A DNA stretch of 64,000 bases from Phoronis australis. Lineage: Eukaryota > Animalia > Phoronida. The position numbers and the translations under genes were made by a program. The notes under the pieces were generated by a model that saw only the letters and a list, made by a program, of their open reading frames with translations, was not told the DNA's origin and did not search any database. This document shows positions 15,480-63,176 of this stretch, piece after piece (the first letter of the stretch is position 1; every line of letters starts with the position of its first letter). Location of the stretch: contig NMRA01000090.1 of the NCBI GenBank assembly GCA_002633005.1, positions 978,736-1,042,735 of the forward strand. Reading direction: 5' to 3'.

Positions 15480-15870
15480 AATCATAAACTACCGGGCACC
15501 GTATTCGTTCTCAGTAAAACCCCGGAGCTGTATTTATCTCATTGTAAAACCCTCTCTCTAGGGGGCGCTCTGCATAACGTATTGCATTTGATTTTGAGAG
15601 TATAAAGCTTACGTCTTCTTTCGGGCGCTGTTATATAGAATGTAGCTGACAGCCTTCATCAAAAACTTCTCTACCATTTATTTACTACAAAGTACAAAGG
15701 TAAATAACTTATTGTTTTGCTGAAGTCTTCGTAAGTAGCATATTCGTTTTTAAGGTTTTGATGGCCGCCGGAAACGGGGAACGTTATGCTGCATTAGTCA
15801 CTGGGAAAACCCAGGGTTTTCGGTAGAATCCAAACATTTAGTTTCATTTACTAACTAGGAAAAACCCATT
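15480..15870 (+). promoter_or_regulatory. Putative 5' end of the TIR gene: non-coding exon ending at 15699, with kappaB/AP-1-like sites in intron 1
   Basis: Donor aag|gtaaat at 15700; acceptor actaactag| at 15858; GGGAAAACCC at 15803-15812; ttagtca at 15794-15800; CTCF-like ctctagggggcgct at ~15556-15569. Confidence 0.45.
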
Positions 15871-15873
15871 GCA

Positions 15874-18800
15874 ATGCTCCTGTCTTTCCACCATGGCGTT
15901 GACATTGAAGGTACGTTTGTATAAAGCTAATCAAGTTACAGCCGAATTACAGAAGTCACATGTATGTGAATTGAAATAGTTTGTTTTTAAACGACGCAAA
16001 AGCCAGGCGACAGGGGAAACTAATTATAGACGTCATGAGTCACGACAGTTTGAGCCTTCCTTGTTTGCTACCGTTTCGTTACTCGCATCCGTTTTATATC
16101 AGTATTTCTCTTCCTGTTGAAGTCGTCAAATGTCAACCATACTGTGTACAGAGGGGCATACAGCTCAACTTGAGAGGATGATCTCTGTTCTAAAGTGCTG
16201 GCTTCGGAGTTCAGTGTTGTACAGCTGTCTAAACGGTGACCACCGTATCTAGATAGCCGCAGTAGAGATGGTGAAGCTTTTATAGGAGTTTCATATGCCA
16301 GAAGATTTTCGGCAAACTATGCCTCGCACGGATGTTCTCATAAGATACTTTTGGCGCATAGAGGGATAGACACATTAGGAGGCAGTCAACGTCTTAAATA
16401 ATTCTTTTGAACTCGAACAAATACGCCCAAAATGAAACATTTTCTTCAAGCAGGCCAGTTTTGATACTTGCGTGCAGTCTTAGCGATGACATAGGAGCGC
16501 GTGTACTTTAAAATGGCCTGTTGCCGATTTGAGCAACTGAACGAAGGACTGTTGGAGTTGGAAGGTTCCAAGGTGTCCCTCTATGCGCAAAAGGTACTTA
16601 CAATAACATGGTTTTGATGATTTAATCAGTGTGAGGCATAATTTGCCAAAAAGCTTCCGGCATAGGAGCTTCACCGTGGCCAGCTATAGACGGTGGTCAC
16701 TGTCTAACAGCTGTCTAGACAGTGCAGTAGAGATGCCATGATGCTCCCATAGGACCTTCATACAATGGAAGCTTTTCGATGAATTATGCCTCACACTGAT
16801 TAATCCATCAAAGTCACATTGATATATTATTACCATATGCACATAGAGAGGGACACCTCGGGAGGCCATGGATGTCTTTGATTCCTTCAAACTCGAAAGA
16901 ATACTCCCGTTATCAAGCTTTTTTCAAGCAGTCATCATTATGGTATTTCTTTGGCAATAATATCACGTGTGGATGTCCAAGGCGTAGAAGTGATGACCCT
17001 GTAATAGGAATTCTGAAACTGATTTACCAGGGCATCAGTGACATAAACAAGTACACCCTCGAAAATATGAGTACACTTATAAGTATAATATTGACGTTAC
17101 TCGTATTATTCGGTAGTATTTGAACAGACACAGAGCAGATGTTCTGCGTTTTTCATCACATTTGGCTAGTGTATGTCTGGAAAGAGTGCAGAATATGCTT
17201 GTATTGAGCACTGTTTCTGTTTTAAATTGATTCTAATAAAGAATACTAAACAATATGCAGTCTGGAAACAGTTTCCTTTGAAAAAAAGATTGGAATTGAT
17301 GGACACACTGACAAAACTGCAGTTATCTTCTTTTAATTTTTGTCTTAAAAATGCACTAATTATAGGTCATTGACCAAAATGTTGTTACCTTACTTTTTGT
17401 AAGAAAAGTTGTCTGTCAACAGATGTTATGAGCTATGCAATGCATCGCTGAAATGGAAAGGAATCATCCCAGTGAAAAGGGTTCAATCGATTTATTTTTG
17501 ATTGATAAAATGAAGGGTTCAAATTTAGAGCAATCTAAGGGGAAAACTCTACATGTTATATTTTTACTTTTGCTCGTAAGTTTTGAGACAAGAAGCTAAA
17601 AATGCTAGCTAGTTCATTTTAATGTGTCTTAAACATGTGAAAGTTTTTAACGTCTTTTTGACTTAAGCCAGTACACTGACAAATCTATTTCAATTTCCGT
17701 TTTGTCATGAACATAATGCAAATTATATAAGTCAGCTGACCAAAAGAAGAAGTTGAATGTGATGTTGGCATAAGAAAACAAGTCTGGCAGCAGACATTGT
17801 ATCATAGAAAACTGGTATGCCACATGGCGAAGTAAATTGCACTGGTAGTCATAGTTAGTAACATTGGAAGGGAAGACAAGTGTTAGTTCTTTATAATTTT
17901 CTAATTGTATACCTAGCAATCTAGCGCAAATCCCAATATTCAAATGAAAATTGAGGTCGCCAAAATTGAACTCTGATCTTGGCCGTTTTTTTTTTGCCAA
18001 ACAATTCTGTCTTCAGTCTGTTTACTTTCTCACGTAGTTTAAGTGCTTATTTGATGATATGTGCCAACTAATAGTGAAGGTGGAAAGTGTTGAGTTCACA
18101 AAATAATATGAACAGTTGTGAACCAAAGGTATTGTAATTAAAGTTTGGAAGTCCACACAACTTTTTAAACGGATTTTGCATGAATTATTGTCTGACTTTT
18201 ATACTTGCTGTGGTGCATTCATGGTGACTTGGGATTTTTCCAGGTCGGCAAACACAATCTGAAGTCGTATTGATGAGCTGCAGGTTGCAAAATCGAGCAC
18301 AGATATTGTAGATAGTCTAGCTCATCAATTTCATCCGGGTTCTAATGAGTTATGCATGAAACATCATTCCGGTAGTGACGCTCGTGAACCAGCTTGCCGA
18401 AGTCATTCGTGGCCATCATTGTTTAAAAGCACATCAGACTGTGTTTGCCACCAGAACTTTAATTTTCAGTCAGTTTGGAGTACTACAGCACCTCTAGTGG
18501 CCGTTTTGTGCGATTGTCCTGTTGTTCAGATGTCTGGTTGATATCTCATAAACCACAAGGGCATGCTAATGGTATTTGAAACAAGGGTATAAGGCATCAC
18601 TGAGCCAGTGCATGTGACTCTCAAATCAACCCTGCCCATCATGGCCAGAAGGGTAGGGCTTAGGAGTGTTTTTGAGCTGAAACGTTTTCGAATATCTGGA
18701 GAACGGATGTATAGCTTTAAGTTAGCTTTGTCTCAATGATTTGTGACGATAATGCATCAGCTCCAGTCAATTTTGAGTGCTCAGATTCGACCTTTGCAGA

Positions 18801-21800
18801 ACCCTTTAGTAGCCTGGTCTTTATCTATGGGGAGAGAGCTTTTCTGGAGAACCAATTGACCGCTTACACTGAGTCTTTACTTTCACATGTATTTAGTCTT
18901 ATCAACCAATCATCATTTTTGGCTTGAGACACTTTTTATGTTTCAGGGACTGTTTGTTTTTCCTCTGAACTGCACTAGTGTCTCCTGTCCTGGCCCACAA
19001 TGCAATGTGGTTCTCGCTTTTCACGTGAGTACCTGAGATTATGTTCTTTTTACAACTTTGATTTAATTTAATGTAGAATTTGTCACTTGACACAGACTTA
19101 TGGTTGCACAATTTAAAGAATAAACTAAAGAAATGGAAATCATTGTTTTGTTTCTTTATTAGGCCAAAACCCATAATTGGTTCTGGACTGGTTTTTTGAA
19201 AATGGAATTGGTGGACCGGGTTCAGTTGTTTTTTGAGTTGCTCACCATTTCAAGAAGGAAAATCCACGATCAAAAATCATGTGTGATTTTTTCATGCATT
19301 ACCTTAAGCAAATCAAGTCTTTTTACCCTTGCTTACGTACCTGGGGGCAGCTTTTGTTTGCTTGTCCGCTGTTATGTGCCCTCGTGTAGTAACACCGTGC
19401 AGGATGTTAATGAGATTTTGCAGAGGTGCTCCTAAAGGTGGATGAGCACAATTTTTGGAACCATATGATGACCACTGCGTCCCCTAGTAGCAATTTTATT
19501 TTACATTTCAGTAACTCAGTAACTATTGTATTCTCGGCATTTTTTCCATGATGAGATTTAATTATTTTTCTAATTGTGTGGAGTAAGGTCATATTTCTTT
19601 CTTGAGTCTTTAAGTCTTTTTCTCTGAGACAGACCCTTGGAGTATCTAACTATGTGTCTGTTACTTCCTTGTAGTCGACTCTGTGCAGCCTGTTGGTGAC
19701 AATCTTCTAGACAATGATGCAGGGTATGCTGTACCTGATCACAGAATGGTGCTTAACTCAGGTGAGTTTCCCTGGTTGGATGATGGAATTCGAATTGGGT
19801 GGTCTTAAAGGCGTTATATATCTGCATGTTATTAAGAGATAACATTTGGATTTTTATGTGTCCACATTGCTGTCATTTGTGTTCAGGTGTCCTGTGTCCA
19901 CTGCTGTATCTCCTGAATCCCTTGCCGTGGTAAATTGAGATTTCACAGATGTGCTCTCATCAAAATGACAACAGGACGAAGAATTTTCGAGCCGTCACAC
20001 TTCTGCTGTGTTCCCTATTGGCAATTTTAGTTTTTTACGTTTGTCTCTGTATCGTTGGAGTTCCTTGATGGATGTTCATGAAATCCGATCTTAGATATCT
20101 GTTAAGGTGTTGGCGATGCCTTCCCATTTTCGGACAGATTAGCCGTATCTTGCTTCACCTAATGACTCTGTTTCTAGGCACCCTGATAAGCAGAGTTCCC
20201 TTATGGTTTTTCATGAAATTTGGTAAATCAGTCTCTATTATGAAGACAACAATGCTTTGCAATTTTTGAAGAGATTTGATGGATTCTATCTGTGCTGCCT
20301 AATGGCCATTTTTATGCGCCCACATATTTATATGTGGACGCATTATGCCGTCATCTCTGTCCGTCCGTCCGTCCGTCCGTCCGTCCGGGCGGCGTCCGTC
20401 CGGCGTCCGGCGTCCGGCGTCCGCTGCTCTATCTCGAAAACCCTTTGACATACGTTCATGAAATTTGGCACATATGTTCCATTCATGAATGGGACGGCAT
20501 GTGCGAACTTTCGGACGGATCCGACTACCGGTGTGCCCCCTAGTGGCAATTTTAGTTTTTTACGCTTACCTTTGTATCTTCAAAAGTATTGAACGGATTT
20601 TCATGAAATTTGGTATGTAGGCACCTATTAGTGAGATGACGCTATCCTACTGTTTTCAGATGGATTCGACGTAGTTTGCGCCACCTAGTGGCCATTTTTA
20701 CTGTTTTCGAGTCTGTATTTTTGCGTCCACCCCTCTATCAACCAAACCGCTCAAAGGATGATTGTGAAAATTGGCGTGTATGTGCTTACTATAAGGAAGA
20801 CAGCTGACAATGATTTTCAGACGATTTGGACTACTGTGGCGCCTCCTAGTGGCAGTTTTGTTTTTTTGCGCCCATGGCTGTATCTCCCAAACCGTTTGCA
20901 GGATCTTTACTAAATTTAGCAAGTGTATTTATGTGATGTTGACAACGGACGATGACGACTTTAGGATGATTCTGATTACCGGTATGCCTCTAGTGGCAAT
21001 TTTAGTATTTGCCTCTAGTGGCAATTTTAGTATTTTACATTGACCTCTGTATTTTCATAGGTCTTCAGGTGTATACTTTGTGTTACTTCGTGACTGTGAA
21101 GGAAAAGTTCCTAGTAGAAATTTGTTTCTGGCATTCTAATGCTGTGCTAATCTCGTATGTTGGTAAATTTGTTTTTAATTCTATGTTTCTGTGGTGCTTT
21201 AAGCAACTGGTGTATAGGATGTGCTTGTATTATGAAGATTACTCACATTTTGCCCCTAGCCTATTGAGGAGACAATGACCATGCCTTTCCATTTTGCAAA
21301 GTATGCCCTCTACTGGCCACTTTATGGTACCAATAAACAACCCTAGAAGGATACCGTATGCGGTGCAATTGTGGGCGCATTTCAACGCTCCGCGTTGCTC
21401 TTGTTATTCTTTTTGAGCTCACCTGAGTCTATATCTGCCAAACTGCTCAAGATCAATATCAAAATTGGCAGATGTGATCCCATTGATAAGAGCACGGCTG
21501 ACATTTGATTTCATATTGGTCTGTCTACTTTGGCAGCCTCTAGTGCTACTGTCATATTTCATGGAATTCAGCAAATTCATTTTTCATTGGGATGACTACG
21601 CCTTCCCATTTTGAACAAGTTTGATGTGATATTTGTTGCATGTCTAAGTGGTTTTATCTGACAACCCTTAACATTTCTTGACTATCCTGACTGGCCCTGA
21701 ACTCAGAAGTTTATTTTTGGGACAAATATGTGGTGTGGGAACTTTTGCAGTTTTATGACAAAATCACAGATGGAAATTTCAAGTAAGAAATCCCTGCAGC

Positions 21801-24800
21801 TTGCTCCTTCAACTCATCGCTGCTAACTTTCTAGATCAAGATACACTTCCAATAATTTTGAAGAAATTAGAAAATTTTGTTGCACAAACAAAAAAGAGCC
21901 ACTATAAAATCGTTATAATTTGTTAACTTTGAAACTTAAAATGTGGTTCCGAATGCTTACGTACATTTTTTGGACAGTTGAAACTCCACTTGTGAGTCCG
22001 AATCCTGAACAAGTCGTGATGTACTAGTAACATCGTTGACAGAAATTCTAGCTGCTATTGCTTTGATCCCAGAAGTCAAGACAAATTATCATCAACATAT
22101 CTGTCTAAATTTTGCCTCAACCTAGCCCGACGGACACATCAGTGAGCATATGGGTAGCCCAGTGTGTCCTGGGTGGGGTACTGATCTTAAAACCCCTAAC
22201 ATTTGGTGGAGTCTTGCCCATTGTACTGGCTGGCACTATTACATGGCTATGACTCAAAGTGCATGGCAACGAATGGGAAAGTATCTCCATTTTATTAAAA
22301 AAAAAACAGGCAAACTTGCTTTCACAAAGAACCTGTTGACCAATAAGAGGGCTCCCGTGAATTTTAGCTCCAATGTTTTGTGTAATAGGCTCAACCATGA
22401 GGCCTGGGCACGTCTGATGCACTGCAAAAGACATCAGACCGTATGCAGTTTCTTTTTAAATTTCAGGGAGAATATTGCTCTTTCATTAAACTTTTTACTG
22501 CCAAATGAAAGACTAACATAAAGTAATTTTCTGATGTTGCAAATTGTCATTAGTGGCATTTTTATAGCTAAAACGTAGCAAACCAGATACAGTGGCCAAA
22601 AGCTGATATTGGCATTCATGTGGGTCATGTTTGAAGTCTCCAAAAAGTGACGTCAGTGAAAGAGTTGCAACGATGTCTAACTGGAAAGCATACAAAACTG
22701 GGGTTTTGACTACAAATGAATATTAACACCAAATTAACACTTAAATATTTGCATTAGAAGAATTCACTGAAGAACTTTGCCAGTCAGTCAGTTTGATTAA
22801 AGTTCGACGATTCTAAATACAATGGACAGTCATGTCTAACTCTTTGAGCGTAGTAATGATGGACAGTGGGATGAGGCTGTGTGTCTTGAACCACAGAATC
22901 CAGTTTGCGACACAATATAGATAAGTAGTAGCTGAACACTTGGGGAGAGGATACTAATTTCATGATATCTGGTGACTGAAAGAATGTATGAGGCATAGTT
23001 TGTGAACAAAAGGCAGCTGCGCTGGTCTAATTTTGGGGAAGCTATCGCTTTCTATGGTTATATACATCCTTACTCATTTTTCTCTGCAGGCGGAATGGCA
23101 GGTTTGAAGCCATTCTCCAGTCAATGCATTAGAAACCAATAACTGCAGTGCTTGCATTAATTCCAGCCATTAACTCAGGAGTAACGAATTATAGATTATT
23201 GTTATTTCCCATATCTTGACCCCAAGTGCGATTTTGAGGATTAGGGTAAATACCTGCTGAGCACGTGTACTAATTTATTTATCCACATCTTGACAATAAA
23301 CTCTTACAAAACTCACGAATATTTAAATGCAGCTATATGCAGCGTAGTGTATCAGCGTAGTGTATCAGCGTAGTATATCAGCGTAGTGTATCAGCGTAGT
23401 GTATCAGCGTAGTGTATCAGCGTAGTGTAGCAGCGTAGTGTATCAGCGTAGTGTATCAGCGTAGTGTATCAGCGTAGTGTNNNNNNTAGTGTATCAGCGT
23501 AGTGTATCAGTGTAGTGTATCAGCGTAGAGTGTGTGCGTAGTGTAGCAGCATAGTGTAGCAGCGTAGTGTAGCAGTGTAGTGTAGCAGCTAGTGTATCAG
23601 CATAGTGTATCAGCATAGTGTATCAGCGTAGAGTGTGAGCGTAGTGTAGCAGCATAGTGTATCAGTGTAGTGTAGCAGCGTAGTGTATCAGTGTAGTGTA
23701 TCAGCATAGTGTATCAGCGTAGTGTATTAGCGTAGTGTGTGTGCGTAGTGTAGCAGCGTAGTGTATCAGCGTAGTGTATCAGTGTAGTGTATCAGCGTAG
23801 TGTATCAGTGTAGTGTATTAGCGTAGAGTGTGTGCGTAGTGTAGCAGCGTAGTGTATCAGTGTAGTGTATCAGTGTAGTGTAGCAGCGTAGTGTATCAGC
23901 GTAATGTATCAGCATAGTGTATCAGCGTAGTGTATCAAATCAGACACTTGAGCGTCTTCTATCACGGAACATTGCAACATGTCCGTTACGTTTCCTGACA
24001 ACCGTTATCTCTCATGAGAGATAACTCTATGGGTTATTACCTTGTAGTTATTTACTGTTCAACTTCAAGCAGATAAATGCTAATATGATGAAAAAGGATT
24101 TCATTTCTATTTCATCAAAGTCTGTTTAAGCAACTTTTCTCATCAATCAACACAACTTTTTCAGTTTCCAGTGGATCTAGTGGGTATGCTTCAGATCTCA
24201 GCCGCCAGGTGTCTCAAGTCTCAAATGAGCCGGAAAACAATATTGTCGATAGCGTCAATGGTCCCTTTGGTGATAGCGAAGATGACAATGATCGCCCTGT
24301 AGATGGCATGGTTTTTTATGCTGCTCATGATTATGACGATGCTGAGAAATGGATTGAAGATATCAGGGAAAACGTCAAACTTAGAAATGGTAAGATTCTT
24401 GGCAGTTTGAGCATTGAACATTTCTCCTGTCATTGTGCAAAGTTAGAGAGAAGGCCTTTCCAAAATATTCCGTAATTGCTGACCTCTTAAAATTTACGTA
24501 TTGTTGTAACCAGCATAGCTTACTGTCAGGTTCAAGCTTGTGACTGCTTAAACTTCATTGGAAGAGTAAATATCGAAATTCAGTGCTTCACACTTAGCTT
24601 GACGCCAAGATCTGAAGGTGCATTTGACGACTTGGCAAAAATCGCAGGTCACCAAACAAAATCTGAGGTCGCCAAAAACTGACATTGAAATCGTCAAAAA
24701 AGGTCGTGCCATACTCCGTTCTTAGAAACTTTTGCTTACCTCTCCAATTTCTCCCCGAAAAAATGCGTACCATTTACTCTTTTACTCATATGCCACTGGA

Positions 24801-27800
24801 GATGAAACGCAGGCGATCGCATACACTGGAGGCACGTGTTTCACCGATCTTGCTCGATTTTTGCTGAACAATTCCGACATCTGTCTGTTTACTTCCTGTT
24901 GTAATTTAAGCACATGTTTAATGTTTAACGTGTGCTGACTGTTGTGATGGCAAATGCACTGATTTCATGAAATAAATGGAACAATTGTGAATCAAAGATA
25001 ATAAATCTAAGAAACCTGTTAGCAATTTAAAGTTTAGAAGTCAACACAACGGATTTTGGGGGAATTACTGTCTGACTTTGGTACTTGCAGTGGCGACTTT
25101 GTGGCGCCTTGGGATTTTTCCTAGGTCGCCAAAACACAATCTGAGGTCACATTGGGGACCTGCCGGTCACCAAATTGAGCACTAAAATTAAACCAAACCT
25201 TTTTTCAGGAAAACCTCCCGAATTTCGATTATTTGAAGTTAACTATGGAAAGAGCAAGTTTCATGAGCTGGATAAGGCAATGCGTCGCAGTACATACTGG
25301 TTGTTTTATTTGACATCAGAGCCGGACCCTTTTATTTTGAAAGCTCGTGACGAGTGCCTAGAAGAGGCCTTGTCAAACGAAGACCGTAGGTGGTCCATAA
25401 TACCGATTTTTACTGCACCAAAAGACAAGTTGTCAGTGCCTTCTGGTCTAAAGTCTATAGCTGGCATTTATACAGTTAGCACAAATATTAAATCTGTGTA
25501 TAGCAAGATGAAAAAGACATTCAATGAAAAACTCTACGAGAGGCTTGAGAGAGAGGAGCGTTGGAGGACTGAGAAACGGCAGACACAGATGAAAAAAGCA
25601 AACATGAAAAAGATGGATGAGATACTGGAACGGGAGAAAGCGAAAATTAAAAGAGATGATGAGTTGAGAGACAAGCAGATAGAATTTGAAAAGGAAATGA
25701 ATAAGGTTAAGCATAAACATGCGCAGATGGAGGCTGCTCGAAAGGAGGAACGGCGCAGGGAGCAGCAGAAGTTGGCAGCAAATCCAGTGATTGGTTCATC
25801 TGCAATGAGTGGTGTTCTGGTAATTTTGAGTCTTTGTTGGCATGTTTTTACGAAATTTTTCTCTTGTTATTCTCTTTTTCATTGCTATACTTGACGGTGA
25901 TTCCTTGAATGCATTGGTGATGTGTCAGGCATAGGAGCTGTTGCAGCTGATTTGAGTTGATTTCAAGTTGTGGCACATATCCTTGATGTATTCAATTTTT
26001 GCATCTTGTACAGTAAATTCCAATAACAGGCAGACAAAATGATGTGGAATTCTCTGTCAAAATGACTGAACTTAAGTGTAATAATGCCCCGTCATTACAG
26101 CTAAGTGCTAACGGGATTCACTGCCAGAGTGCCTGGAATGAACCGAAATGATGGGAAAACAAATTTTTGTCCAATTACTTCTGTGTAAGTCAACAATAAG
26201 TTTTCACCAATTCTAGTACGGTTCAAGGCAGCCCTGGCTGCTGTCAATTCTAGATTGCTCTGAGTCTTCTCATAATTTCGGAACAACACTCACTCTTTTA
26301 TTGACACATTGTGTATTAACCGTGATGTCAAAGTGAAGGCATGCACGCTACTGTAAGGGAGATATTTGTGAATTTTTTTAAGATTAGTGCAGACTGAGCT
26401 TTAGTGGTTGGATATGGTTGGTTGTGAGGACAGTTTGCATTGACTGCTGTTTCTGGTAAAGAACACCCTCAAATAATTCAACATGTCTATATTTTTCAGC
26501 CAAGAGAGACTCAATGGGATGGGGTGAGTGATCAACTCAACAGAGCTCCTGCTGATGTCAGGGGAGGTAACTCCCAGTCTTCACATTGTCACGCCAATGG
26601 AGCCTCAGACACCACTTGCACGGGTGAACGGGATGTGCCAGAGAGTCCTTTACATGGTACATATACATTAGTCACGATTGTTTTGATTTGTTAGAAGTGC
26701 TGGGCCCTCAATGCTTCGATTTTGGGACTGAATGTCGGTCCCATTCCCTTCTGAAAATATTTAAATTCATGAAAATCACCCCAATCAGGCCCAAACATTT
26801 CCCTGTGACAAATGATTAAAAGAATTCTCCTCAATAATGAATCACTTCTAACTCGGGCAGACTCTCGAATTCAAAAGGTTTTAATCTAAAATCTCCACTT
26901 CTAAAGCCGTGCCTTATTTGAGTTTACTGTCTCGATGTGGAGAACACAATAAAGATTAGTCTATCTCAAGTATAGGTGTGATCACATAGTGTTGAGCAAA
27001 GGAAGTCAAGACTGAATGTTGTGGCGACCAGGGCTGGAATTGGTGTTGATNGGAGGGGGGGTCTCTCTCAATAAAAAATTCTTTTCTCAGAAGGCACAGA
27101 CATCTCCCCCTTAGGTGGGCGTGAGTTTCTCATTGCGTAATTGCTGTTTTAATCTTATTTCTCGTCACTGCAAATTTATTTTGATGACAGTAACTAACTA
27201 CAATTAATATTATGTTAAAGACATTTTTCAGACTTGTTTGTTGCAACTTCCATGTTGCAGCTAGAGCACTGCTACAAGCAGACAACATTTTTGAAAAATT
27301 GTTGGCAACAACATATCAGAATAGCACTTGAAAAACGAGAAATGCAATTTTGCAATTATTTTTGTCCGAAATTGGTGAGATTTTACTGTACTAGGTCTAG
27401 AATAATTTTGCCTGATTACACACGAGTATGAACTCTTATTTAGGTTTACTGAGAGCCATTGAGCCAGCTGTTAAAGATGGTGGCAACCTAACGGTCAACA
27501 TAGAAAACCTGCAGATTGGGAACAACAACCAGGTGATGAAGACATCCTGTGGAGACACAGCAGGTGACAGGGACGGGGATGAGGATGTGGTGTACGTGCG
27601 TAAGGACACCAGCCATGACCCCCGGTGAGTCGGCGGCATCTGTGCTGGCATTAGCGCGTGGGTTACACATTGTCTCCTATTAATTACAGTAGCAAAGATT
27701 GTGGTTAAAAGTAGTCCTGAGAGCAATGGACTCTTACTGTAATTTCTCTGCCCTTTAATCATTCATTTGTGATTGTTGTCCAGCTCTTTGTTTTGTTGGC

Positions 27801-30800
27801 TGTTGTTGGAACCAATAGTCAGAGTCTTGCTTTTATTTCAGTGCTGCGAATAGTCAAGAAGCAAGTGAACAGACATTGGTGATATCTAGTGTTCATAAAG
27901 TTGATAGGTGAGTGGGAAATGTTTGTCAAGATCTTGAGACAACTGTGTCATAAACAGTATCCAGTCACAGGTATACCCAAGATCTGCCCAGGCATATATT
28001 TGCCAGCACCAGGTATACTCAAGATCTGCCCAGGCATATATTTGCCAGCACCAGGTATACCCAAGATCTGCCCAGGCATATATTTGCCAGCACCAGGTAT
28101 ACCCAAGATCTGTCCAGGCATATATTTGCCAGCACCAGGTATACCCAAGATCTGCCCAGGCATATATTTGCCACCACCAGGTATACCCAAGATCTGCCCA
28201 GGCATATATTTGTCAGCACCAGGTATACCCAAGATCTGCCCAGGCATATATTTGCCAGCACCAGGTATACCCAAGATCTGCCCAGGCATATATTTGCCAG
28301 CACCAGATCATGTTACAACCTGGCCCGGTTGGTTAATGTCAAGTGTTCACCTGTCGTGTGGCATTGCAATGGTGGATACCTGGCTGCTCCAACTACATGT
28401 AGGTATCCATCAAGTTGACTTTCAGTGATTGCTAATGCCCTTACTAAAGTAAATGCGCTAAGCTTTTGGACAGCCTTCAACAATGAAGGAATGCCGCGAT
28501 TTAGCTAGGAGGTTGCAAATCTTGGGCATATAGTTAGAGAGTTACATCACCTCTGGATATCTATACCTGGATTTAATCATGTCTTGTGGCTTCTATATGA
28601 AACTGTGAAATTGCCCTTCAGTTCAAGCCATAACCCCTAAAAAGCTCAAGTCTATAATATTAATTAATTCTACATCAATCCTTTATTTTTTTCAAATTTT
28701 GGTACATTTAAATTTCAGTCCACAAATGGTCTTTCACAACATTTAATTATTCACGACTGTTTGCGTCTCTATTTTTTTCCAAAAGAAGCAAAACTTGGAA
28801 TTTTTCTCAACATTCGGTGGGTTTGCTTTTTTGTTCACCCTGTACGATGACTGGGAATTCTGTTTCATCTTGTTGGACCACTTTTGGCAGGCACTGTATT
28901 TTATTCTAATGGCCATAACACTTCAAGTAACCATTCATTTGGTGGCTCATCAGTTATTGACTCAAGACCAAGTTTGCTTCCGTAATAGGCCCTAAATATG
29001 GGTAAATTTGGAACATCACATTTCAAAAATGGCTGATTGTATTCTTGTGAATCTTCCAGAGACTACACATTGTTCTCCAAAACACTGTTGGGAAGTGCTA
29101 TAAAAACATTGTAACAGTTGAAAATAAGACCTTTCTGATTTCCATGACAAAATGAAAACAAAACGATAATTTTAGAAAAGTGTAATCTCACTCAGCATTT
29201 ATGGGGTCTCATAATGAACATTTACACGAAGTAAAATATTATTATGTTATTGATATCATTGTTTTGCTCTCAGTGGTTTTACCTTTCTTTATACTTAATG
29301 TTACTAAAAAGATAAGGTTAATATGCGACTCAACTAATGGCAGATTGGTACATGAAATGTCAAAGACCAAATTTTAAGGCTTTCTGCTTCTAGAAAACAT
29401 ATACTGCAAACCTCACAGATACAGACAAAATGCAATTTAATTCGGAAATACCAAATACGAAAGTAACATGAAAAATACCTCAATACTGCCGCTCCCTGGC
29501 TCTCCTCACTGATGCCAAATATGCACTGCCACAATGTGAGTAAATCGAGTCAGCGCACAACTCTTATACTGAAATGAGGGTCGGGTCACATGCAAATTAC
29601 ATTCAGTCTATTCATCCATGAATATACACGTGACCATGAGCCACCCGGAGCAAACAAACGTGAAGTATCTTACAATAAAGTTTTGTAGATATTTGACTAA
29701 ATACACCAGTGAGGTAATTTAAGTCTAACAAAATTCCATCTGCCTTTCAGTGATCGTTTAGATGATGCCTGTATCACCAGTGTGAAGAGTACTATGTCCA
29801 GTGGTGTGGTGGCGAACGTTGCTGGCGCGGAGGCGAGTCTTGCCCCAGGGTTGACCACATGTACAGAACAGAAGGTTTTAAGTCCCAGAGAGCAGCATGA
29901 AAACACAGGTGAAATAGACTGGCAGATGATGCTGCCCTCTGTTGTTTTCTGGACTCGCTTATTGAATTTTCAGGGATCGAAGTCTGCAGACTGTAATGAG
30001 TGTTTGACATAATGTTGTCTAGTTTTGAGTTTTGACAAAGATTTTGTAATTTCAACCTGGAAATTGGTTATGTTACTGCGATTTGATATCAGTCTGAACT
30101 TAAATCAACCGAATGTAGTTTTTAAAAATGGCGACAATATTGCTTCTCATCAAAACTGAGGAAATTTCGGAACCAAAAATTTCTGTTAATATTTGTATGA
30201 ATTAGTGTACCAATTATTCTTTCTGGTTCAAAATGTTTCTTCTTTGTTACAAAGGTTTTTTCCATACAAATAATTTTTATCATGGCTGAGATTTTGTAGC
30301 AATTCAGTTAGCCCTTGAAAAGAGGAAATACTGCAACATTAATTTGGGCAATTATTTTTGTGTGAATAAGAAAAAGTCTTAAAACCTAACTTTGAACCTT
30401 TGTGTGTGAAATGTATTGAGACAGTGCAAGTTAAGCCAACCGTTTTTTAATGCAAAATACTTAATATGTGATGGGATGATACAATATGCCGTAACAAAGT
30501 TCGGAGTTCATCTACAAAATCACATGTCCAGTGTTACCAAAGTAACGAAATTGCCTTTGTAGCCTTGCAGTAAAACTTTTGCACCTGTCCAGCAACATGA
30601 ACAGAAAGTTAAAAAGTGCATAACATCAAAATATGACAACTATCCAAATTGATATACAGTACAAATTGATATACAGTACAAATTGACATACAGTACAAAT
30701 TGATATACAGTACAAATTGATATACAGTACAAATTGACATACAGTACAAATTGACATACAGTACAAATTGACATACAGTACAAAGTAATTCAACTGGACA

Positions 30801-33681
30801 ATGTGGACTGTTGACTTTTTTATTACTTTTAGTAAAATTGTAATGAACACGTCAGGCCTTTCCCTACAGTGTGTCCGGGGCATCCAAAAGGAAACTAGAT
30901 TCAAATTTAGATACCCAGTTAGAAGACTCTGTTCAGCATTTGAAAACCCAAATAACTGAGCAACTAAGCATTGGCTCCTCTTACTAGCTGCAGCTCAGGG
31001 ACCAACAGTTCACTTACCTGTCCAGGATAAAATAGTTGGTTTAGAAATGATGGAAGACACAAAAAATAGTGCACATCAACCATTTTTTCATGGTAACATA
31101 CCACAGTATAACAGCAATATGATTTGAGATTATAAAATGCTGCTGTGCATTATTGGTCAAGGACGCCCTGAGAAATTGAAAATCTCATTTTGCATGCCTT
31201 ATTTTGAAACCCTGGATGAACCGCTGAATGAACCTCTTGTTTAGTCTGGAGATTTTCGTAGTTTAACTGTGAACAAATTTCTGTGCTTTGTCAGCTTGCT
31301 TTGCAAATTTCCTGTGTGGATAGTAATAATTTCTGTGTTAACATTCATGTTGGCAACACATGCAACAGGATGGGAAGGAGATGAGATCAAACAAATTGGT
31401 ATCTTTGCAAATACGCAATGTGATATGCAGTTTATTTTCAACTTTAGCGTATGTGGAGTCACTGAAGATGATACAGACAAAGTCCGTTCCTGACATTGAC
31501 GTTGGAGACCCAAAGAGCTCCAAGTCTTGCAATAGTGCTGTCTCATCTCCTTTCATGGATGGGATGTCCACTCAAGGCGGGACCAGCATCGAGGGTACTT
31601 CGGTTAAGGGTTTGTGTCTGAGCGGCTCTGGGAGTGCAGACATTGCTGATGGTGGAGCTGATGTTCAGAGGGAGACTCCATCGCACTATATCTGCCAGGC
31701 GGACGAAGATCCTGCTAATCAAGCAGAGATGATGGCCCAGAAATTAGGTAGGAAATGTTCACGGTGAGAAAGGCATGCCCTCTGGTGTAGATTATGCCCG
31801 GGTACATGCTTTTTAATTTAAAGCGAGAAATAATTAATGATCCTGTGAGCACGGTTCAGTGCCTACAGTCCAAAGGCTGTATTGTATAAAGGTTCAATAG
31901 TTGGACAGCAATAGTCGATGTCTGTTTAGTTCAAAGACTCCATAATTTGAAGTTTTTATTGGGTGAAAGTTATATAGTTGGTTCTAGAAAACATTCAAAA
32001 TATAGACAATGTTTAGGTCACAGACTGCAGCGACCTCTACAGTAGTGAAGTAGAATCTCAGAAAATAAGAGTGTGTTACGAGCATTTTCAGAAAATTGGA
32101 AGCTTGAGGATGAAGAAGTAATTGTCACGTTTGCCAGTCGATACAAAGGGATGGATCTCAGTTTTTGCCAAACAGGTTTACCAATGCGTAAACTGTAAGT
32201 TAATTGCTGCGGTCAATTCGCAGGCGAGTAGAAATCATGTTCTGTAATCCCTAGTGGCGACAAGTTTTATATTTGATCGCACTTCCATTTTGTAGTCGCT
32301 CATGGCAGCTTCGGGGTTGCAAAGTTATGTCCTGCATGTGTGTGTGTATGTGTGTGGGTGTGGGNTGTGTGTGGGTGTGTGTGTGGGTGTGGGTGTGTGT
32401 GTGTTTGTGTGTGTGTGTGTGTTTTCATGCCCTTGGGAAGGTGCAGCTGTGTCCAAATCTGAGCACTTTTGTCTGTTTACCAATTTTGCATTGTATTGTT
32501 TTGAATTGTGTCGATATTGAATTGTGTTGTATTGAACTCTATTGTATTTTATAAAGTATTTTCTTGGACAAACAATATTTAATCAAACATATTAAATCAA
32601 TCAATAAAAAATATGAAACATGTCTCAAATTGGTTCACAGTCAAATTACAGGTGATTTCTGGACATAGAATTATCTGGCAGTTATCGCTTAAAGCTTTTG
32701 GTTATCTGGATTGGCCATGGACGTACTTTTTTTGCAAAACTATCCTAAAAAGCATGGTTACATGACCTAATTAATACCAAATTGGTGTAGAGTCAAAAAT
32801 ACAATTTCAAGGAATTTCTACTCTCGGAAAACATATAATTTTGCAGAGTTAAATTTGATGTTTTAGTTGATATTTTCCTAAGTGTACAGACTTGGCGACA
32901 AGGTCCTACATAACCTTAAATGTGCGCTAGTGAAGTTGGCTAAGTATCCATTACGGTGCCAAGAATTGATAAAACTGCATCAAAAACATCCAGGTGTATG
33001 ACCTCCTCATTTGTGCAAGAGTCACTATAACTGCATCTGTTGATGACACTTGGTCTGCTCCCACCCACTCTGTGGAAATTAAAAATAACCTATTTCTGGT
33101 ACACGAGATGTAATGTAAGGATTTATCCCAGCATCTTTCGATCTATTTAAGGTAACTACGAATTGCCAGTCAAAGTACGTTATGCTGGCGTGAACAAAGA
33201 ATCAGGCACCCCCCAGTCACTCACATTCACTCAGGCGTCCGTCGATGAAGGGTCCCCGTCTTTGCCATCGTCTGCCTTCCCGACAGTCGTCGATGCACAT
33301 GGAGAACAGGACACGTCCGAGCCAATCAGAATACCAGGGAATGCTGACGAATCATTGCAAAGACACACAGCATGCAGTTATGACATCGGCTGTTCATCGT
33401 CAGAGGCTTCTGGAAGAGGAGAGGAATCTAATGTAAATTGTGAGAGCAGTACTACTTGGTATCGTACACTAGATGATGCTAGTGATCTAAATGGTAGCAT
33501 GTCACCAGGACAGACAGCTAGAAGTGAGCAAACGGAGAAACAATGTCTTGACCCATTGAGCCACAAACGCCAGTATTTGACAACAGAGGGCACTCACGCT
33601 GAAACTGAACCAGGGTCAGATGTTGTTGAGGATAGCAGATCAAAAACAAATGGTGGAGGCAAAAAATGTGCGATAATGTGA
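15874..33681 (+). CDS. Multi-exon TIR-domain adaptor, TICAM/TRIF-like (TIR + coiled coil + RHIM-like motif + C-terminal CaaX), ~761 aa (765 with microexon)
   Basis: Manually joined GT-AG exons: 15874-15910 (MLLSFHHGVDIE, tentative start), 19675-19761, optional 23090-23101, 24165-24389, 25209-25819, 26500-26656, 27444-27624, 29751-29908, 31448-31747, 33152-33681. All intron phases match, and the total is 2286 nt = 761 aa + stop without the microexon. The TIR-like segment DGMVFYAAHDYDDAEKWIEDI...FRLFEVNYGKSKFHELDKAMRRSTYWLFYLT...RRWSIIPIF...KMKKTFNEK resembles the TICAM1/2 TIR pattern. The first two exons are less certain than the rest. Confidence 0.8.
16220..16932. repeat. Three diverged copies of a ~200-bp unit in +/-/+ arrangement (fold-back)
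   Basis: Unit acagctgtctaga...gcagtagagatg...attatgcctcacactgatt...gcatagagggacacc at ~16220-16455 (+), ~16560-16715 (-) and ~16708-16932 (+). The last two meet at cagctg (~16709-16714). Confidence 0.75.
18138..18302 (+). repeat. Diverged copy of the 3' end of the 24581-25184 element
   Basis: ttaaagtttggaagtccacaca...acggattttg...tgtctgactt...ttgggatttttcc...acacaatctga...gagcac aligns to 25027-25183. Confidence 0.7.
20309..21405 (+). mobile_element. Complete non-autonomous Helentron-type element (HINE/DINE-1-like)
   Basis: T-run, then a 5' subTIR/hairpin atgcgcccacata-ttta-tatgtggacgcat (20314-20343), a (CCGT)n microsatellite (20360-20425) and tandem ~150-160 bp core repeats (ttcatgaaatttgg..., gccccctagtggcaattttag). 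The 3' end has subTIR gtgggcgcat (21371-21380), hairpin caacgc-tcc-gcgttg and a T-rich end. Older decayed relatives flank it at ~19851-20308 and ~21411-21660. Confidence 0.8.
22105..22440 (+). mobile_element. 3' remnant of the same non-LTR family (CCHC + 3' UTR) in a TIR-gene intron
   Basis: MGSPVCPGWGTDLKTPNI matches MGSPVCPECGTDVKTPNH at 44.6 kb. The tail aataggctcaaccatgaggcctgggcacgtctgatgcactgcaaa matches aatgggcccaaccattaggccagcgcacgtctgatgcaccgcaaa at 44.85-44.9 kb. Confidence 0.8.
23341..23937. repeat. 13-bp minisatellite (agcgtagtgtatc)n, ~45 copies, contains an assembly gap (Ns at 23481-23486)
   Basis: Direct tandem array with point variants. Confidence 0.97.
24300..25535 (+). other. 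TIR domain coding region, split by the intron 24390-25208
   Basis: Alternating beta/alpha TIR pattern: betaA DGMVFY, alphaA DYDDAEKWIEDIRE, betaB FRLFE, BB-loop NYGKS, alphaB KFHELDKAMRRS, betaC YWLFYLT, alphaC PFILKARDECLEEAL, betaD WSIIPIF. Recognised by eye, no HMM was run. Confidence 0.75.
24581..25184. mobile_element. Non-autonomous DNA transposon filling most of the intron that splits the TIR domain; 5-bp TSD aaatt
   Basis: Termini cagtgctt...gagcacta, aaatt on both sides (24576-24580, 25185-25189), and subterminal ggtcgccaaa/ggtcaccaaa repeats. A partial relative lies at ~17950-18302. Confidence 0.7.
27968..28306. repeat. 42-bp minisatellite, 8 near-identical copies (intronic)
   Basis: Unit caggtatacccaagatctgcccaggcatatatttgccagcac. 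Confidence 0.97.
30645..30784. repeat. 17-bp tandem repeat (caaattga(t/c)atacagta) x8
   Basis: Direct tandem array. Confidence 0.95.
32337..32422. repeat. (TG)n microsatellite with TGGG interruptions
   Basis: Seen directly. Confidence 0.95.
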
Positions 33682-41900: not shown

Positions 41901-44900
41901 ACTTCGAAATGAGGTTTTCGAAGGGCATACGGTTTGCCACATTTCTCATGGTAGTGCTGGTTAAGGTTCGTGTTGATGTTTCTTTGTTAAATTTATGTCT
42001 GTTTTCTATAGAATTAAAAGCCACTGTACACTTTTAGGCTCTTTGCTCATGCCTCCATATCCCAAAACCTACTCACACATATTCTAAATGAACGGCATTT
42101 TGATTATTAGTTGTCTTCTGTTAAAAGTATTGTTAACCCGCCTTCCGTCGAAAATTTTTCTTCTAAAAACGTTTTAGTCACTTATGGTTCATTAAATTGA
42201 TCTCAGTTTGTCCCTTTCTAAAATTAGACGTATCATTTGAGCCAAAAGTTTGTATTCCCACCTCACACTTGACTAAGAGTGAGACTTAACACCTTCGTTA
42301 CCGGTGATGGATTTTTTCAAATACCTTCACTCCCAAATCATTTATATAACCCATGTAGGTTCTTTGGCACGAAAACTCGGCAGCCTAAATCAAGACTTTC
42401 ATTTTTCCAGGAATTTTGACCTTTTTGTTTCTGACAGCTGAGTTCTCGGTATAATAGTCCACAATTAATATCATCATCCTGTAGGTTTCAATAATGCTTG
42501 ACGCTTTAATGCTATTCAAAAATATTTCTATCATTGCCTCGCCAACGTGAAATACATATGTATTTTCATTGTCTGGGTAGAACATTATACGTACAGTGTA
42601 CTTTGACTTGACGGCATCGTTGATTTGCTTCTAATGACAATGTTATCTATCGTACAATTAATACTAGTGCTCCGAAAATGATTCATTTTTACTCCTTTAC
42701 AGAGAAGTACCGCTATGATTCGTCATATGGCATCTTTCAATATTGACCATTCACATACAAGTCCAAAAATATTCATTTCATACCTATATGATCACAGAAG
42801 GTTTCTCTCGAATTGTAAAACAAGATATTAAATTATTAGGTGATATCCTTGCACCTGTGCCACACGAATATCTGTTATGCATTCAAAGCACTTTTAACGT
42901 ACATCAAGATCTGCTCCGTGTCACAAATCTTCCTTGCAGTGATGTGCCGTCACGCACTTCATAAACTGTTCGCCATGCCTGATCTTTCAGTGAGATCTAC
43001 AGATCCTTGCCCAAACCCTAAACACTAAGTGGTAAATCACACAAAGCTATGGATGCAGGGACAGACTGCTGTCAATTTTCTCGGATACTGTGACCAACAC
43101 TGCAACAAGGTGTGTTCGTGAGTGTGATACCAGTCTGGTTTCTAAGGTTTGGTCAGGAAGCTAGCAATCTCAAACATCAAACCTGACAGCCAGTTCCACG
43201 ACCAGGCATGAGTTTTTATGGACCAGGAAGCTACTTAAGTTGACATCGACTCTTTGGATGAAACCGGCCTAGTTGTCTGTGCAATGGCAACCCTGAATTC
43301 TCTGAGATATGAAAATTAGGTACATGTATGAGTGAAAGTTGCTACCGAACACAGCCTCAGTTCAGACGGTTGATGCAAGCCCTCCTACGTCGACTTTGGT
43401 GAAGTACTATAGCCTCACACTAGCTGTACATGTATTACAACTCCAGATCCAGAAATGGTTAAGTGTCTCATTCTGTGCACCGGGGCTCTAAAGTCCATAC
43501 AAAGCAGGGCACCATCTGTAATGTGGAATGTGTGCCAGTACTCCAAATGACATTGATTTATGCCGCTGTTATCCGACCTGTAATGTCTTATGCTGCGTCA
43601 GTATGGGTAACAGCGTTAAAACAGTTTACAATTATCAACAATCTTTATCAGACGCAACGTCTTGCTTGTTTGTACACCATCTCTGCTTTTCCAGGAACGC
43701 CCCCTACAGCCATGGAAATGCTAATCGGTTTACCACCACTGTACATATACATGTACTTGAGGGTGAAGTTGCATGTTCAGGGCTTCGTCTCAGATACACG
43801 TATAATCATGGTCAGTTGGTGAAAACTCACATCCCCGATTCCGTTGCACACGAAAGCCTCAGGAATGTGTGCAATAAGCTAATGGTAAAAATTGGGCAAC
43901 TACGGAACATGCCTAGTGATGTCCAGATCACCGCTTCGAATTGGTGATAGATGGCCTACCGCAGAACACAACAACGAGGTGGTTTATTAGAAGCATGACT
44001 CTAAACTGGAGAATGGCCAGACAGTCGCTGGAATGTATTTTCTAAGCCTATATGTTGCAGATGCAGAAAGCTGTGTATCGTAGGCAATCTTGCCATAATG
44101 TTCTAGGATGAGATCACTGCAATTAATAGAGCTGCTCAACTGGCATGACACTATAACACCGAGCTGAGTAATCAGCCAAATACCTATTTTCAAATAGCCT
44201 GAGCAGCAATGAATCCCTAAAGAGACCAAGGGTCAACTCTCGATGCTTGCATAATGAGCTTAACAAGCTTACACTTGAAAGAACCGTCAATATACACTGG
44301 GTCAGAGACCATGTGGGAATTGACGGCAATGGAAATGCAGACAGACTCGCAAAGACAGGAGCCAGCATTCTGCATTGTGTACATGAACCTGCTATCCTGG
44401 TATCTTACGGATGCTACAAGATGAGTATACGCAACTGCTGGGTACATACATGTACATGTACCCAATCAGCAGCCCTGTGAGCAACAATTAACTACTGCAG
44501 AGAGACGGAAGAGAATTTTTTGAGCTTCATCAAACCAAAGGTTCAAAAAAACCTTCAGAGTCTCGATACACGTCATTCAAATTTTGACAGACCACTGTAA
44601 CCTAGCTCCACACAGACACATTTCTGGGCCCATGGGCAGCCCAGTGTGTCCCGAGTGTGGAACTGACGTTAAAACCCCTAATCACCTAAGGAGTAACCTA
44701 CTGGATGACACTGCTACATGCCTACAACATATAGCGCATGACAACAAACGAGAATGTCTGTCCGTTTTCGTAAAGGAGACAGGCAGAATTGAAAACTTCC
44801 TTCACGAAGAACCATAACGGGGCTCTCGTGTTTTTAGGTCACGTGTTTGGTGCAATGGGCCCAACCATTAGGCCAGCGCACGTCTGATGCACCGCAAATG

Positions 44901-61542: not shown

Positions 61543-62081
61543 TTAATGGTACGGGACCTGTTTTCTGAACCTCTTTTTCATCAAGCACGAAGGCTTAGAT
61601 GAACAATCGTTGACATTAACTGAACAGTTTCTGCCTTCAAAACCAGGAGGACATGAGCACTTGTAGTCGCCAATGCCATCAACACAGATTCCGTTGTTAA
61701 GGCATGGGTTTGTCGCGCACTCGTCGATGTCTGTTTCGCACTGCTTTCCAATGAACCCTGTCGGGCATATGCATTGGTAATCGTCCGTTCTGTCTACGCA
61801 TGTTGCTTTGTTCTTGCACGGATTTGACACGCAGTCATCCACATTATTCTGACAGAGATCGCCATCAAATCCCACTATGCACGAACACGTGGCCTTGTCA
61901 CCCGCAGCGAAGCATGTACCGCCGTTGCTGCAGGTCACCGTTTGGCAAGGATCCAGGACTGTCTCGCAGTGAACGCCAGAATAGCCCCGAGGACACGCAC
62001 ACTTGTAAGACGTGGTATAAACTGTCGTATTAACTTGGTCCTGACATGTTCCACCATTTTTGCAAGGATCACTTGTGCAAG
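61543..62081 (-). CDS. EGF-repeat exon, Delta/Notch-ligand-like: 4 complete EGF repeats plus a truncated 5th, then stop; upstream exons not identified in the window
   Basis: Acceptor ttttttcag| at 62082, phase 1. Translation: CTSDPCKNGGTCQDQVNTTVYTTSYKCACPRGYSGVHCE TVLDPCQTVTCSNGGTC...CSCIVGFDGDLCQ NNVDDCVSNPCKNKATCVDRTDDYQCICPTGFIGKQCE TDIDECATNPCLNNGICVDGIGDYKCSCPPGFEGRNCS VNVNDCSSKP-SCLMKKRFRKQVPYH*. It contains Ca-binding EGF, O-fucose and O-glucose consensus sites. Confidence 0.8.
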
Positions 62082-63176
62082 CTGAAAAAACGGGACACGC
62101 AAAATAGGCCTACTTGTAACCAACGTTCATGAACAAAACAAGAAAAAAAAACGTGATGAGGCACCTGGTGGTACTACTTTTTTTCTTACAATCCATTTTC
62201 ATGGAGAAAGAAATAATGATATAGAGATCTGAAAAAAAAAACAGTCTCCAGTTCCAGCATCAAACCTAAAATGTTCCAATTGGCCGGTACAGAAAGGTTT
62301 GACAATCAGATTGTTTACTTATTCATCATCTTTGTATATTTAATATACACAAAATTGGACTGTTAAGAGGATAAACAATACTGAAGGGTGGGTGGGGTTA
62401 GCAATAAAAATTTGACTTCGCCAAATACCCACCTCCCCCATCGCCATAACTTCCACACGCTGTGTTATCACCAATTTTGGACCCCCCTCACAGGCGTGCG
62501 GATTTGGCTGTTTGAGGTGCATATCCTGGTAAGGCGGCCTCCAAATACTTGGGCACCCATTCTTCAACATCATATTACGCGCGCTACGCACTTAGGTTAT
62601 GATTTTGACCTTTAAAGGTGCAAATGTAACGACTAAGCAACTGTACTGCGGCTGAGAACGCTGGAGAAACACCATGAGAAACAATTTCACCCGCTCGAGA
62701 TTGTGTACACGGACCATCGTCTTGTAAACTTCGATTATATTTTCGTCTATTTCTTAAAGTTGAAATGAAGCCCAGGATCAAGATTCACTTTAATACAGTC
62801 GTGTTTGGGGAAAGTTTATTTTATGAGAGTCATGATTTGAAGGTACTCTTTGGCAAGGTGAGGTTCCAGGGTCCGTGATGCACTGCCTTAAGTACTATTT
62901 CAACATCCCTACTTGAAACCATAGGCACATAAAGTGTATGGATGGCAATCGGATTCCCGAGTTTCTGATAGGCGAAATTCACCAAATGACGCCAAATACT
63001 TCTGAAACACCAATTTCTCAGATGTTCTTTTCAGATTATCCAAAATCTAGGGCATTTGTTTAAGAGTCAGATGATAGAACCCAAAGTTCAACCTGCCTCT
63101 AAGTTCATTGAAGTACCGCCAATCTCTTACAAGAATGTAATTGTAAAAATATCATCCTACGAATCAGTCGATTGTT

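Follow-up and report, generated by a model that had tools for sequence, protein, structure and literature searches.

A stretch of 64,000 nucleotides from contig NMRA01000090.1 of Phoronis australis (called the window below) contains, on its plus strand, a gene for a TIR domain protein that resembles the vertebrate adaptors TICAM2 (TRAM) and TICAM1 (TRIF). The window is animal-like genomic DNA with about 40% GC and long introns. A preliminary description, made from the letters alone, had assigned to this gene a spliced open reading frame of 761 residues that combines a TIR domain, a charged coiled coil, TRAF6 motifs, a RHIM core and a C-terminal CaaX box. The motifs quoted there are all found on the plus strand (KTFNEKLY at 25514, PRETQW at 26500, LQIG at 27509, PREQHE at 29884, and GGGKKCAIM with the stop codon at 33652-33681). 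Its nine exons, which begin with an ATG at 15874 and end with the stop codon at 33681, reproduce the 761 residues exactly, but RNA reads add an exon of 66 nucleotides. The exons and the associated sites are the following.

15803-15812, plus strand: kappaB-like site, located 62 bp upstream of the presumed start codon (pattern match)
15840-15851, plus strand: site resembling an interferon-stimulated response element (ISRE) (pattern match)
15874-15910, plus strand: proposed first coding exon, without Gly2 (predicted from sequence and frame)
19675-19761, plus strand: exon 2, containing another in-frame ATG at 19746 (predicted; its TCAG/GT donor is the sole one found upstream and matches the contig overhang at 24161)
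24165-24389, plus strand: exon 3, coding for an acidic linker and, from about 24299, for the first third of the TIR domain (RNA depth, splice joint, family profile)
25209-25819, plus strand: exon 4, remainder of the TIR domain (to about 25588), leading into a charged helix of 98 residues (25487-25780) (joints, homologs, profile, predicted model)
26500-26656, plus strand: exon 5, starting with PRETQW, which is TRAF6-like and unconserved (joints, motif statistics)
27444-27624, plus strand: exon 6, with the RHIM-like motif LTVNIENLQIGNNNQVM at 27488-27538 (joints, family RHIM profile)
27842-27907, plus strand: exon 7, 66 nucleotides, with the pLxIS-like TLVISS at 27873-27890 (5' joint from reads; 3' end predicted)
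29751-29908, plus strand: exon 8, with PREQHE at 29884-29901 (predicted from splice sites and phase)
31448-31747, plus strand: exon 9, disordered, rich in Ser, Gly and Asp (predicted from splice sites and phase)
33152-33681, plus strand: last coding exon, with the CaaX box CAIM at 33667-33678 and the stop codon (predicted join; open frame of 176 codons)

Reads from three raw RNA runs, together with one contig set, were aligned to the window from 23950 to 27950. Most reads are 90-99% alike to the window and thus stem from other individuals or a close relative. The three runs support the GT..AG joints 24389/25209 (9, 10 and 9 reads), 25819/26500 (13, 10 and 8), 26656/27444 (15, 19 and 22) and 27624/27842 (2, 11 and 10, plus 7, 7 and 0 with a two-letter variant). 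The last of these exposes the in-frame exon 27842-27907, by which the product becomes 783 residues long; a form skipping this exon could not appear as a joint within the RNA-aligned stretch and may occur as well. Across the exon bins, first mates map to the minus strand only, which fits a plus-strand transcript in the usual type of stranded library. A single RNA contig links the exons for the end of the TIR domain, the helix, PRETQW and the RHIM-like motif. The gene is thus transcribed and spliced from the TIR exon to the RHIM exon, while the start and the joint to the CAIM exon are predicted.

The predicted joints upstream of 24165 and downstream of 27907 have canonical splice sites and chain the exons in frame. 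At the 5' side, the matching part of the contig reaches four bases beyond the acceptor of exon 3, and these upstream letters fit the end of exon 19675-19761. At the 3' side, contig X1 extends 771 nucleotides past the RHIM exon (a piece known by its length only), and the three predicted intervening exons sum to 524 nucleotides. The last exon has an alternative in-frame acceptor at 33170, and both acceptors read through to CAIM. The CAIM exon very probably belongs to the same open reading frame.

At the 5' end, the ATG at 15893 is in a strong Kozak context and out of frame with the model; under the predicted splice it opens a short upstream frame, which could limit translation. Window-wide, kappaB-like and ISRE-like sites occur at chance level (4 versus 3.1 and 9 versus 9.05 expected), their position alone being suggestive, and both patterns were picked after the sequence had been viewed.

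Single exons have no TIR or RHIM match in Pfam. When the TIR part of exon 4 was used as a phmmer query, 66 proteins were retrieved at E ≤ 0.001, with a best-stretch identity of 23-42%. Among the first 40 of these, 23 match TIR_2 at E ≤ 0.01, all of them below the 28-bit cut-off. A profile built from the 66 homologs, and thus without this gene, matches residues 87-243 of the spliced model with 125 bits. This match takes in the N-terminal third of the domain, which is absent from the search query. The domain therefore belongs to the TIR superfamily, as had been proposed. Two word-based homolog searches, with the exon and with the profile, gave no match, which carries no weight since relatives of those lengths exist.

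Names were checked for 30 of the 66 clusters; deuterostome members may be present among the other 36. The 15 named clusters come from bivalves, gastropods, the brachiopod Lingula and the annelid Paralvinella, and further bivalves were gained in a third homolog search. These proteins are annotated as uncharacterised or after low-complexity best hits. One carries the label TMED7, which presumably goes back to a best hit to the TMED7-TICAM2 read-through. In a quick tree, restricted to family members and made while the careful search was unfinished, the main group's named proteins from bivalves and gastropods share a single starred branch. Two unnamed proteins (P0020 and P0030), which each carry a related TIR twice in tandem, sit on a very long branch. 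P0031 from Lingula is a compact paralog of 385 residues with a TIR domain, helix, RHIM-like motif and Cys at position -4, and is a convenient test protein. Before the TIR domain, the window protein has a degron-like SSGYAS (24173-24193), possibly a beta-TrCP site. Words of this pattern ([DST]SG-hydrophobic-x-[ST]) also occur in five of 51 relatives (including P0019, P0024 and P0042; 0.77 expected); the pattern was chosen post hoc and is a lead only.

The TIR domain was compared with solved structures through profiles and predicted models. With the family profiles, TICAM2/TRAM is the first match in the PDB (9e-12 and 1.1e-12), followed by TICAM1/TRIF (6e-4 and 1.9e-5) and TIRAP (1.5 and 0.008); the TIR domains of MyD88, TLRs and SARM1 are absent from these lists at E ≤ 10. 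TICAM2 is also first (7.2e-9 and 1.9e-9) with two disjoint 14-row profiles that lack this gene, and TICAM1 is found at 9.1e-4 with the first of them. For homolog P0029, the whole TIR domain was modelled with a mean predicted local distance difference test score (pLDDT) of 86.7. Foldseek matches this model to TRAM (6.5e-8), MAL (2.7e-6), MyD88 (1.3e-5) and TRIF (2.1e-5). VIA gives a Z score of 17.7 for TRAM (root-mean-square deviation (rmsd) 3.1 over 152 residues) and of 16.9 and 16.7 for TRIF (rmsd 3.7 over 153 and 2.4 over 139 residues). The alignment spans the extended C-terminal helix of TRAM and TRIF, which agrees with the earlier remark that the segment after the TIR domain is TICAM1-like. 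The identity to TRAM is 21-26% in the structural comparisons. In the Atlas, TICAM2 is the nearest named cluster (0.89; a lead only), and the window exon has TIR clusters that are unnamed or bacterial as its nearest rows. The top fold matches of the window exon model are TIR domains, this partial domain being unable to rank subfamilies.

Mutation of several TRAM residues cuts signalling (PMC11745336), and these were traced in the family through the profile-PDB alignment, with the TRAM numbering mapped by hand. W148 is kept in 61, L157 in 62 and M158 in 55 of the 66 relatives; a further residue, P186, is kept in all 66. The four corresponding residues of the window protein are Phe, Leu, Glu and Pro. 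At the position of the catalytic glutamate it has Ala; Glu occurs in none of 47 pattern-matched rows, and the 66 relatives have mainly Ser (34), Gln (15) or Ala (6). TRAM and TRIF likewise lack this glutamate (PMC11745336). Its absence counts against a TIR NADase activity, and the adaptor is likely to be non-enzymatic.

Several results weigh against a TICAM assignment. TICAM1 is missing from the list of the mollusc-only 14-row profile. For the P0029 model, Foldseek ranks MAL and MyD88 above TRIF, and in VIA MyD88, with a Z score of 15.8, lies no more than about 1 below TRIF. PDB searches with single sequences, including the window exon, gave nothing significant. The best Foldseek E-value of the window exon model is 0.019, which is not significant, and in VIA TRIF ties with a bacterial TIR (Z 8.0 versus 8.1). 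The window protein has Lys, Glu and Ser at TRAM positions F151, M158 and F187. The BB-loop proline (TRIF P434) is missing from it, and only 22 of the 66 relatives have any proline in this segment. In the quick tree the window protein is a long branch outside the bivalve and gastropod group, insecurely joined to one unnamed protein. No named chordate TICAM is among the sequences brought up by the homolog searches. The changed interface residues mark the window protein as a divergent member. The family profiles and folds nevertheless rank TICAM2/TRAM first, in line with the TICAM-like character originally assigned. On this one-way evidence from profile-versus-PDB searches and folds, the TIR domain is nearer to TICAM2 and TICAM1 than to other solved TIR domains, with a small structural margin over MyD88, and it is closer to TRAM than to TRIF. 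Orthology to the TICAMs, for which the support is likewise one-way, is probable.

The coiled coil of the preliminary description corresponds to a continuous charged helix of 98 residues in the predicted model, which the named relatives also have after their TIR domain; we infer that such helices pair as a coiled coil. Within it, the region 25642-25727 is highly polymorphic among the RNA samples, with many substitutions, and one RNA contig has in-frame deletions of 9 and 6 bases there.

The RHIM-like motif of the window protein scores 6.9 bits with a profile from the motifs of 20 relatives, compared to at most 6.2 bits in 2,000 shuffled tails. It is thus beyond chance as judged from sequence. 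A motif of this type occurs in 20 of 21 named loci, by a pattern tuned on the family; the exception is a record of 364 residues which ends in the helix. The core of the window copy begins with Leu, and its spacing is short, as in mussels and a limpet. The published core is [IV]Q[ILV]GxxNx[MLI] (PMC9440496). The claim of a RHIM core is weakened by the fact that the window motif deviates from it at two places and misses the Pfam RHIM domain, which only one of 40 homologs matches, below the cut-off. The order TIR domain, long helix, disordered linker, RHIM, disordered tail and often a CaaX box is kept in the family.

Both TRAF6-type words are at their proposed places (0.29 expected; at least two arose in 159 of 5,000 shuffles). 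As a family feature they were dismissed, since 20 were seen in 22 tails versus 14.8 expected and 10 of 21 named loci have none. The pLxIS-like TLVISS of exon 7 was also rejected as a conserved motif: it is not shared, and there is no LxIS downstream of the TIR domain in the 21 named loci, taking the first listed isoform of each.

A strict CaaX end occurs by chance in 49 of 100,000 cases. A Cys at position -4 is found in 14 of the 21 named loci (counting any isoform), compared to 0-2 at the other offsets from -1 to -15. Among the search hits, 7 of the 22 with at least 800 residues have it, and 10 of the full set of 66. Thirteen of the 14 relatives end in Ser, Met or Gln, and the window protein ends in Met; these residues favour farnesyltransferase. 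We take the 14 loci to span five bivalve orders, a gastropod and a brachiopod. The joint occurrence of RHIM and CaaX box is thus found in relatives; orthologs without either feature had been named beforehand as a refutation. A smaller weight is due to these counts for two reasons: the 14 loci are not independent (four are from Mytilus, three from scallops and two from unionids), and the box is missing in 7 of the 21 named loci. It is absent from the records of Haliotis, Littorina, Patella, Ruditapes, Ylistrum, a second Potamilus and Paralvinella. In Gigantopelta it is isoform-specific, the same locus occurring with and without it (P0014, P0068). Two Mytilus gene models lack it, and P0021 and P0073 represent one locus with and without the box. 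On the quick tree, the CaaX label does not cluster (7 changes; 128 of 500 shuffles are as low). The labels were taken from cluster representatives, which are often truncated or other isoforms, and loss and incomplete gene models are thus indistinguishable. Functional prenylation of the predicted CAIM end is quite likely, judging from these sequence patterns.

Gly2 is absent at both candidate starts (the start being predicted), and two of the 66 relatives fit a loose myristoylation pattern. One of the proteins without a CaaX box, P0052 from Patella, has a myristoylation-type Met-Gly start by this loose pattern. This single case is a possible anchor swap toward the TRAM state. Four unnamed relatives (P0104-P0106 and P0110) end in a basic-hydrophobic stretch instead, possibly an alternative membrane-binding end.

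These data could also be read in other ways. The family may represent a separate lophotrochozoan TIR-RHIM lineage, for which TRAM is only the nearest solved relative and which relays from other TIR receptors or from cytosolic sensors rather than from TLRs; the TICAM origin would then not be older. The PDB contains few invertebrate TIR adaptors, and being nearest among solved structures is not orthology. An identity to TRAM of just 21-26% and an unconserved BB-loop proline are what such a lineage could show, a TIR survey confines the TRIF group to jawed vertebrates (PMC7075850), and RHIMs are present on many unrelated amphioxus immune proteins (PMC4262963). We nevertheless regard a separate lineage as unlikely, because TICAM2 leads every other TIR by several orders of magnitude with four profiles, and because the extended C-terminal helix is shared with TRAM and TRIF and the TIR domain precedes the RHIM as in TRIF. 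A role as an inducible decoy or brake, which binds TIR and RHIM partners on membranes and damps signalling, would have a precedent in amphioxus TIRA: this protein inhibits TICAM by binding TICAM and RIP1b, and it is an NF-kB target (PMC6043800). The kappaB-like site before the proposed start and the three altered TRAM interface positions of the window protein point in this direction. The promoter motif is weak and post hoc, however, the interface residues are kept in the relatives, and a mostly single-copy family with a species-like tree suits a core adaptor, so that we consider a decoy distinctly improbable.

Even less probable is a genuine TIR-RHIM adaptor whose CAIM exon is a minor isoform, is unjoined, or has a box that is unused in this species. 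The three 3' joints rest on prediction, the last acceptor is a weaker AAG, and isoforms or gene models without the box occur in Gigantopelta and Mytilus, with several taxa lacking it altogether. Against this stand an exon open over 176 codons in the correct phase from either acceptor, the 771 nucleotides of contig X1, which exceed the 524 nucleotides of the three intervening exons, and the retention of Cys at -4 from bivalves to the brachiopod behind tails that cannot be aligned. If the protein were a membrane-tethered TIR NADase of SARM1-like or bacterial-like type, SPARTA and other enzymatic TIRs would be expected high in the fold lists, as they are, and unnamed or bacterial TIR clusters are indeed the Atlas rows nearest to the window exon. 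Since the catalytic position holds Ser, Gln or Ala and not Glu, a trait shared with TRAM and TRIF (PMC11745336), we find this hardly credible.

On balance, we favour the interpretation that the gene is an expressed member of an uncharacterised TRAM/TRIF-like TIR family and codes for a one-chain signalling adaptor, which would join the anchoring of TRAM to the RHIM output of TRIF. The functional steps are inferred by analogy with TRAM, TRIF and amphioxus TICAM. The CAIM end, with only two lysines beside the box, would be farnesylated and hold the protein on internal membranes such as endosomes, and the adaptor is likely to anchor itself to membranes. An activated TLR or another TIR receptor would nucleate a filament of adaptor TIR domains, as in TRAM and TRIF; that a TLR is the upstream receptor has, by this analogy, slightly better than an even chance. 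The long helix and a linker of about 150 residues could cluster the RHIMs, seeding beta-amyloid with a RHIM-bearing partner. Independently of MyD88, this amyloid would activate NF-kB and might also trigger cell death. Localisation may be switched through isoforms that have or lack the CaaX end. A RHIM-driven output, again by analogy, is reasonably likely. A difficulty is that lophotrochozoan RIPK-like proteins are described in a review as being without C-terminal interaction domains (PMC10492769); RIP1 is listed in an oyster study (PMC4892480).

We tentatively go one step further with a scenario that falls somewhat short of an even chance. Lophotrochozoans would keep a farnesylated single-chain ancestor of TRAM and TRIF, in which alternative last exons toggle membrane binding and which couples TLRs to RHIM amyloid. 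If this is true, the MyD88-independent TLR branch dates to the last common bilaterian ancestor, and the family is the "unknown adaptor" postulated in papers on mollusc immunity.

Several other features of the window were noticed. Downstream of the gene are exons of an SLC5 sodium:solute symporter (38874-60000, plus strand, the extent being guessed from scattered frames), for example at 48952-49146 on the plus strand; one exon matches Pfam SSF at 1.1e-5. An exon with at least four EGF repeats, Notch-like or fibropellin-like, is on the minus strand at 61546-62109 (Pfam EGF 5.6e-30). Decayed retroelement fragments are located at 43463-44477 (plus strand), with an RNase H match (8.9e-7) at 44172-44477. 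Intronic tandem arrays are at 23340-23937 (period 13), 27968-28306 (period 42) and 30645-30784 (period 17). The 42-mer array forms long open frames and has no exon evidence. The intronic pieces 27348-27390 and 24620-25155 have reads on both strands with many loose ends and are thus dispersed repeats. Among the 18 window frames scanned (of 150 ranked), no neighbour suggests synteny with vertebrate TICAM loci.

TRIF and TRAM are treated as chordate-only in the literature (PMC6043800, PMC9334734, PMC4892480, PMC6321704). A TICAM survey with a 30% identity filter reports none outside chordates (PMC9440496), and six invertebrate genera are unnamed in its readable supplements. Earlier surveys missed the family because its members fall below the Pfam TIR_2 cut-off, and the TICAM survey filtered at 30% identity (PMC9440496). 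Two points reduce the novelty. The legend of a figure in a 2025 review has TRAM and TICAM2 among the inferred components of a scallop pathway (PMC12521104), a listing that probably goes back to annotation by best hits. In addition, the numbered ecTIR-DC groups may include this family. Searches of the open-access literature turned up neither a description of it nor one of a TIR-RHIM adaptor with a CaaX box.

MyD88-independent signalling through TIR and RHIM in an invertebrate, which the preliminary description had taken to be undescribed, is already known from amphioxus: bbtTICAM has a TIR domain and a RHIM and activates NF-kB without MyD88 through RIP (PMC6043800, PMC11788365). What is new, as far as sequences can tell, is a TICAM-type family in animals said to lack TRIF and TRAM, with a conserved C-terminal candidate prenylation box that replaces the myristate of TRAM. 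The signalling branch usually called chordate-only is likely to be much older; a TICAM-type family in molluscs, a brachiopod and an annelid would shift its origin back to early bilaterians. The family, with its bivalve, gastropod, brachiopod and annelid members, is a concrete candidate for knock-down in farmed molluscs. A prenyl-anchored TIR adaptor would be a further route for placing a TLR adaptor at membranes, beside the myristate of TRAM. TIRAP reaches membranes by binding phosphoinositides.

Like amphioxus TICAM, with which it was compared by way of review descriptions of bbtTICAM, the window protein is a putative single invertebrate TICAM-type adaptor with TIR domain and RHIM-like motif. 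bbtTICAM comes from a chordate, whereas every named hit of the present family is lophotrochozoan. The family resembles the amphioxus TIRA and ecTIR-DC families in being composed of invertebrate TIR adaptors, for which the function is regulatory or unknown (PMC6043800, PMC6321704).

With vertebrate TRIF, the second-best match in most searches, the window protein shares the succession of TIR domain, long helix, disordered linker and RHIM. It differs from TRIF by the missing BB-loop proline, by having no conserved TRAF6 or pLxIS motif, by the position of its RHIM in the middle of the protein, and by its predicted CaaX end, which TRIF lacks. The N-terminal domain of TRIF has no match in 40 homologs, and about 86 low-complexity residues precede the TIR domain of the window protein, its start being predicted. 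Vertebrate TRAM is the best match in profile and structure. The family conserves W148, L157, M158 and P186, and it has in common with TRAM the missing catalytic Glu, the extended C-terminal helix and a lipid-anchor signal. TRAM, however, is short, N-myristoylated and devoid of a RHIM, whereas the window protein has 783 residues, no Gly2, a RHIM-like motif and a predicted C-terminal CaaX box.

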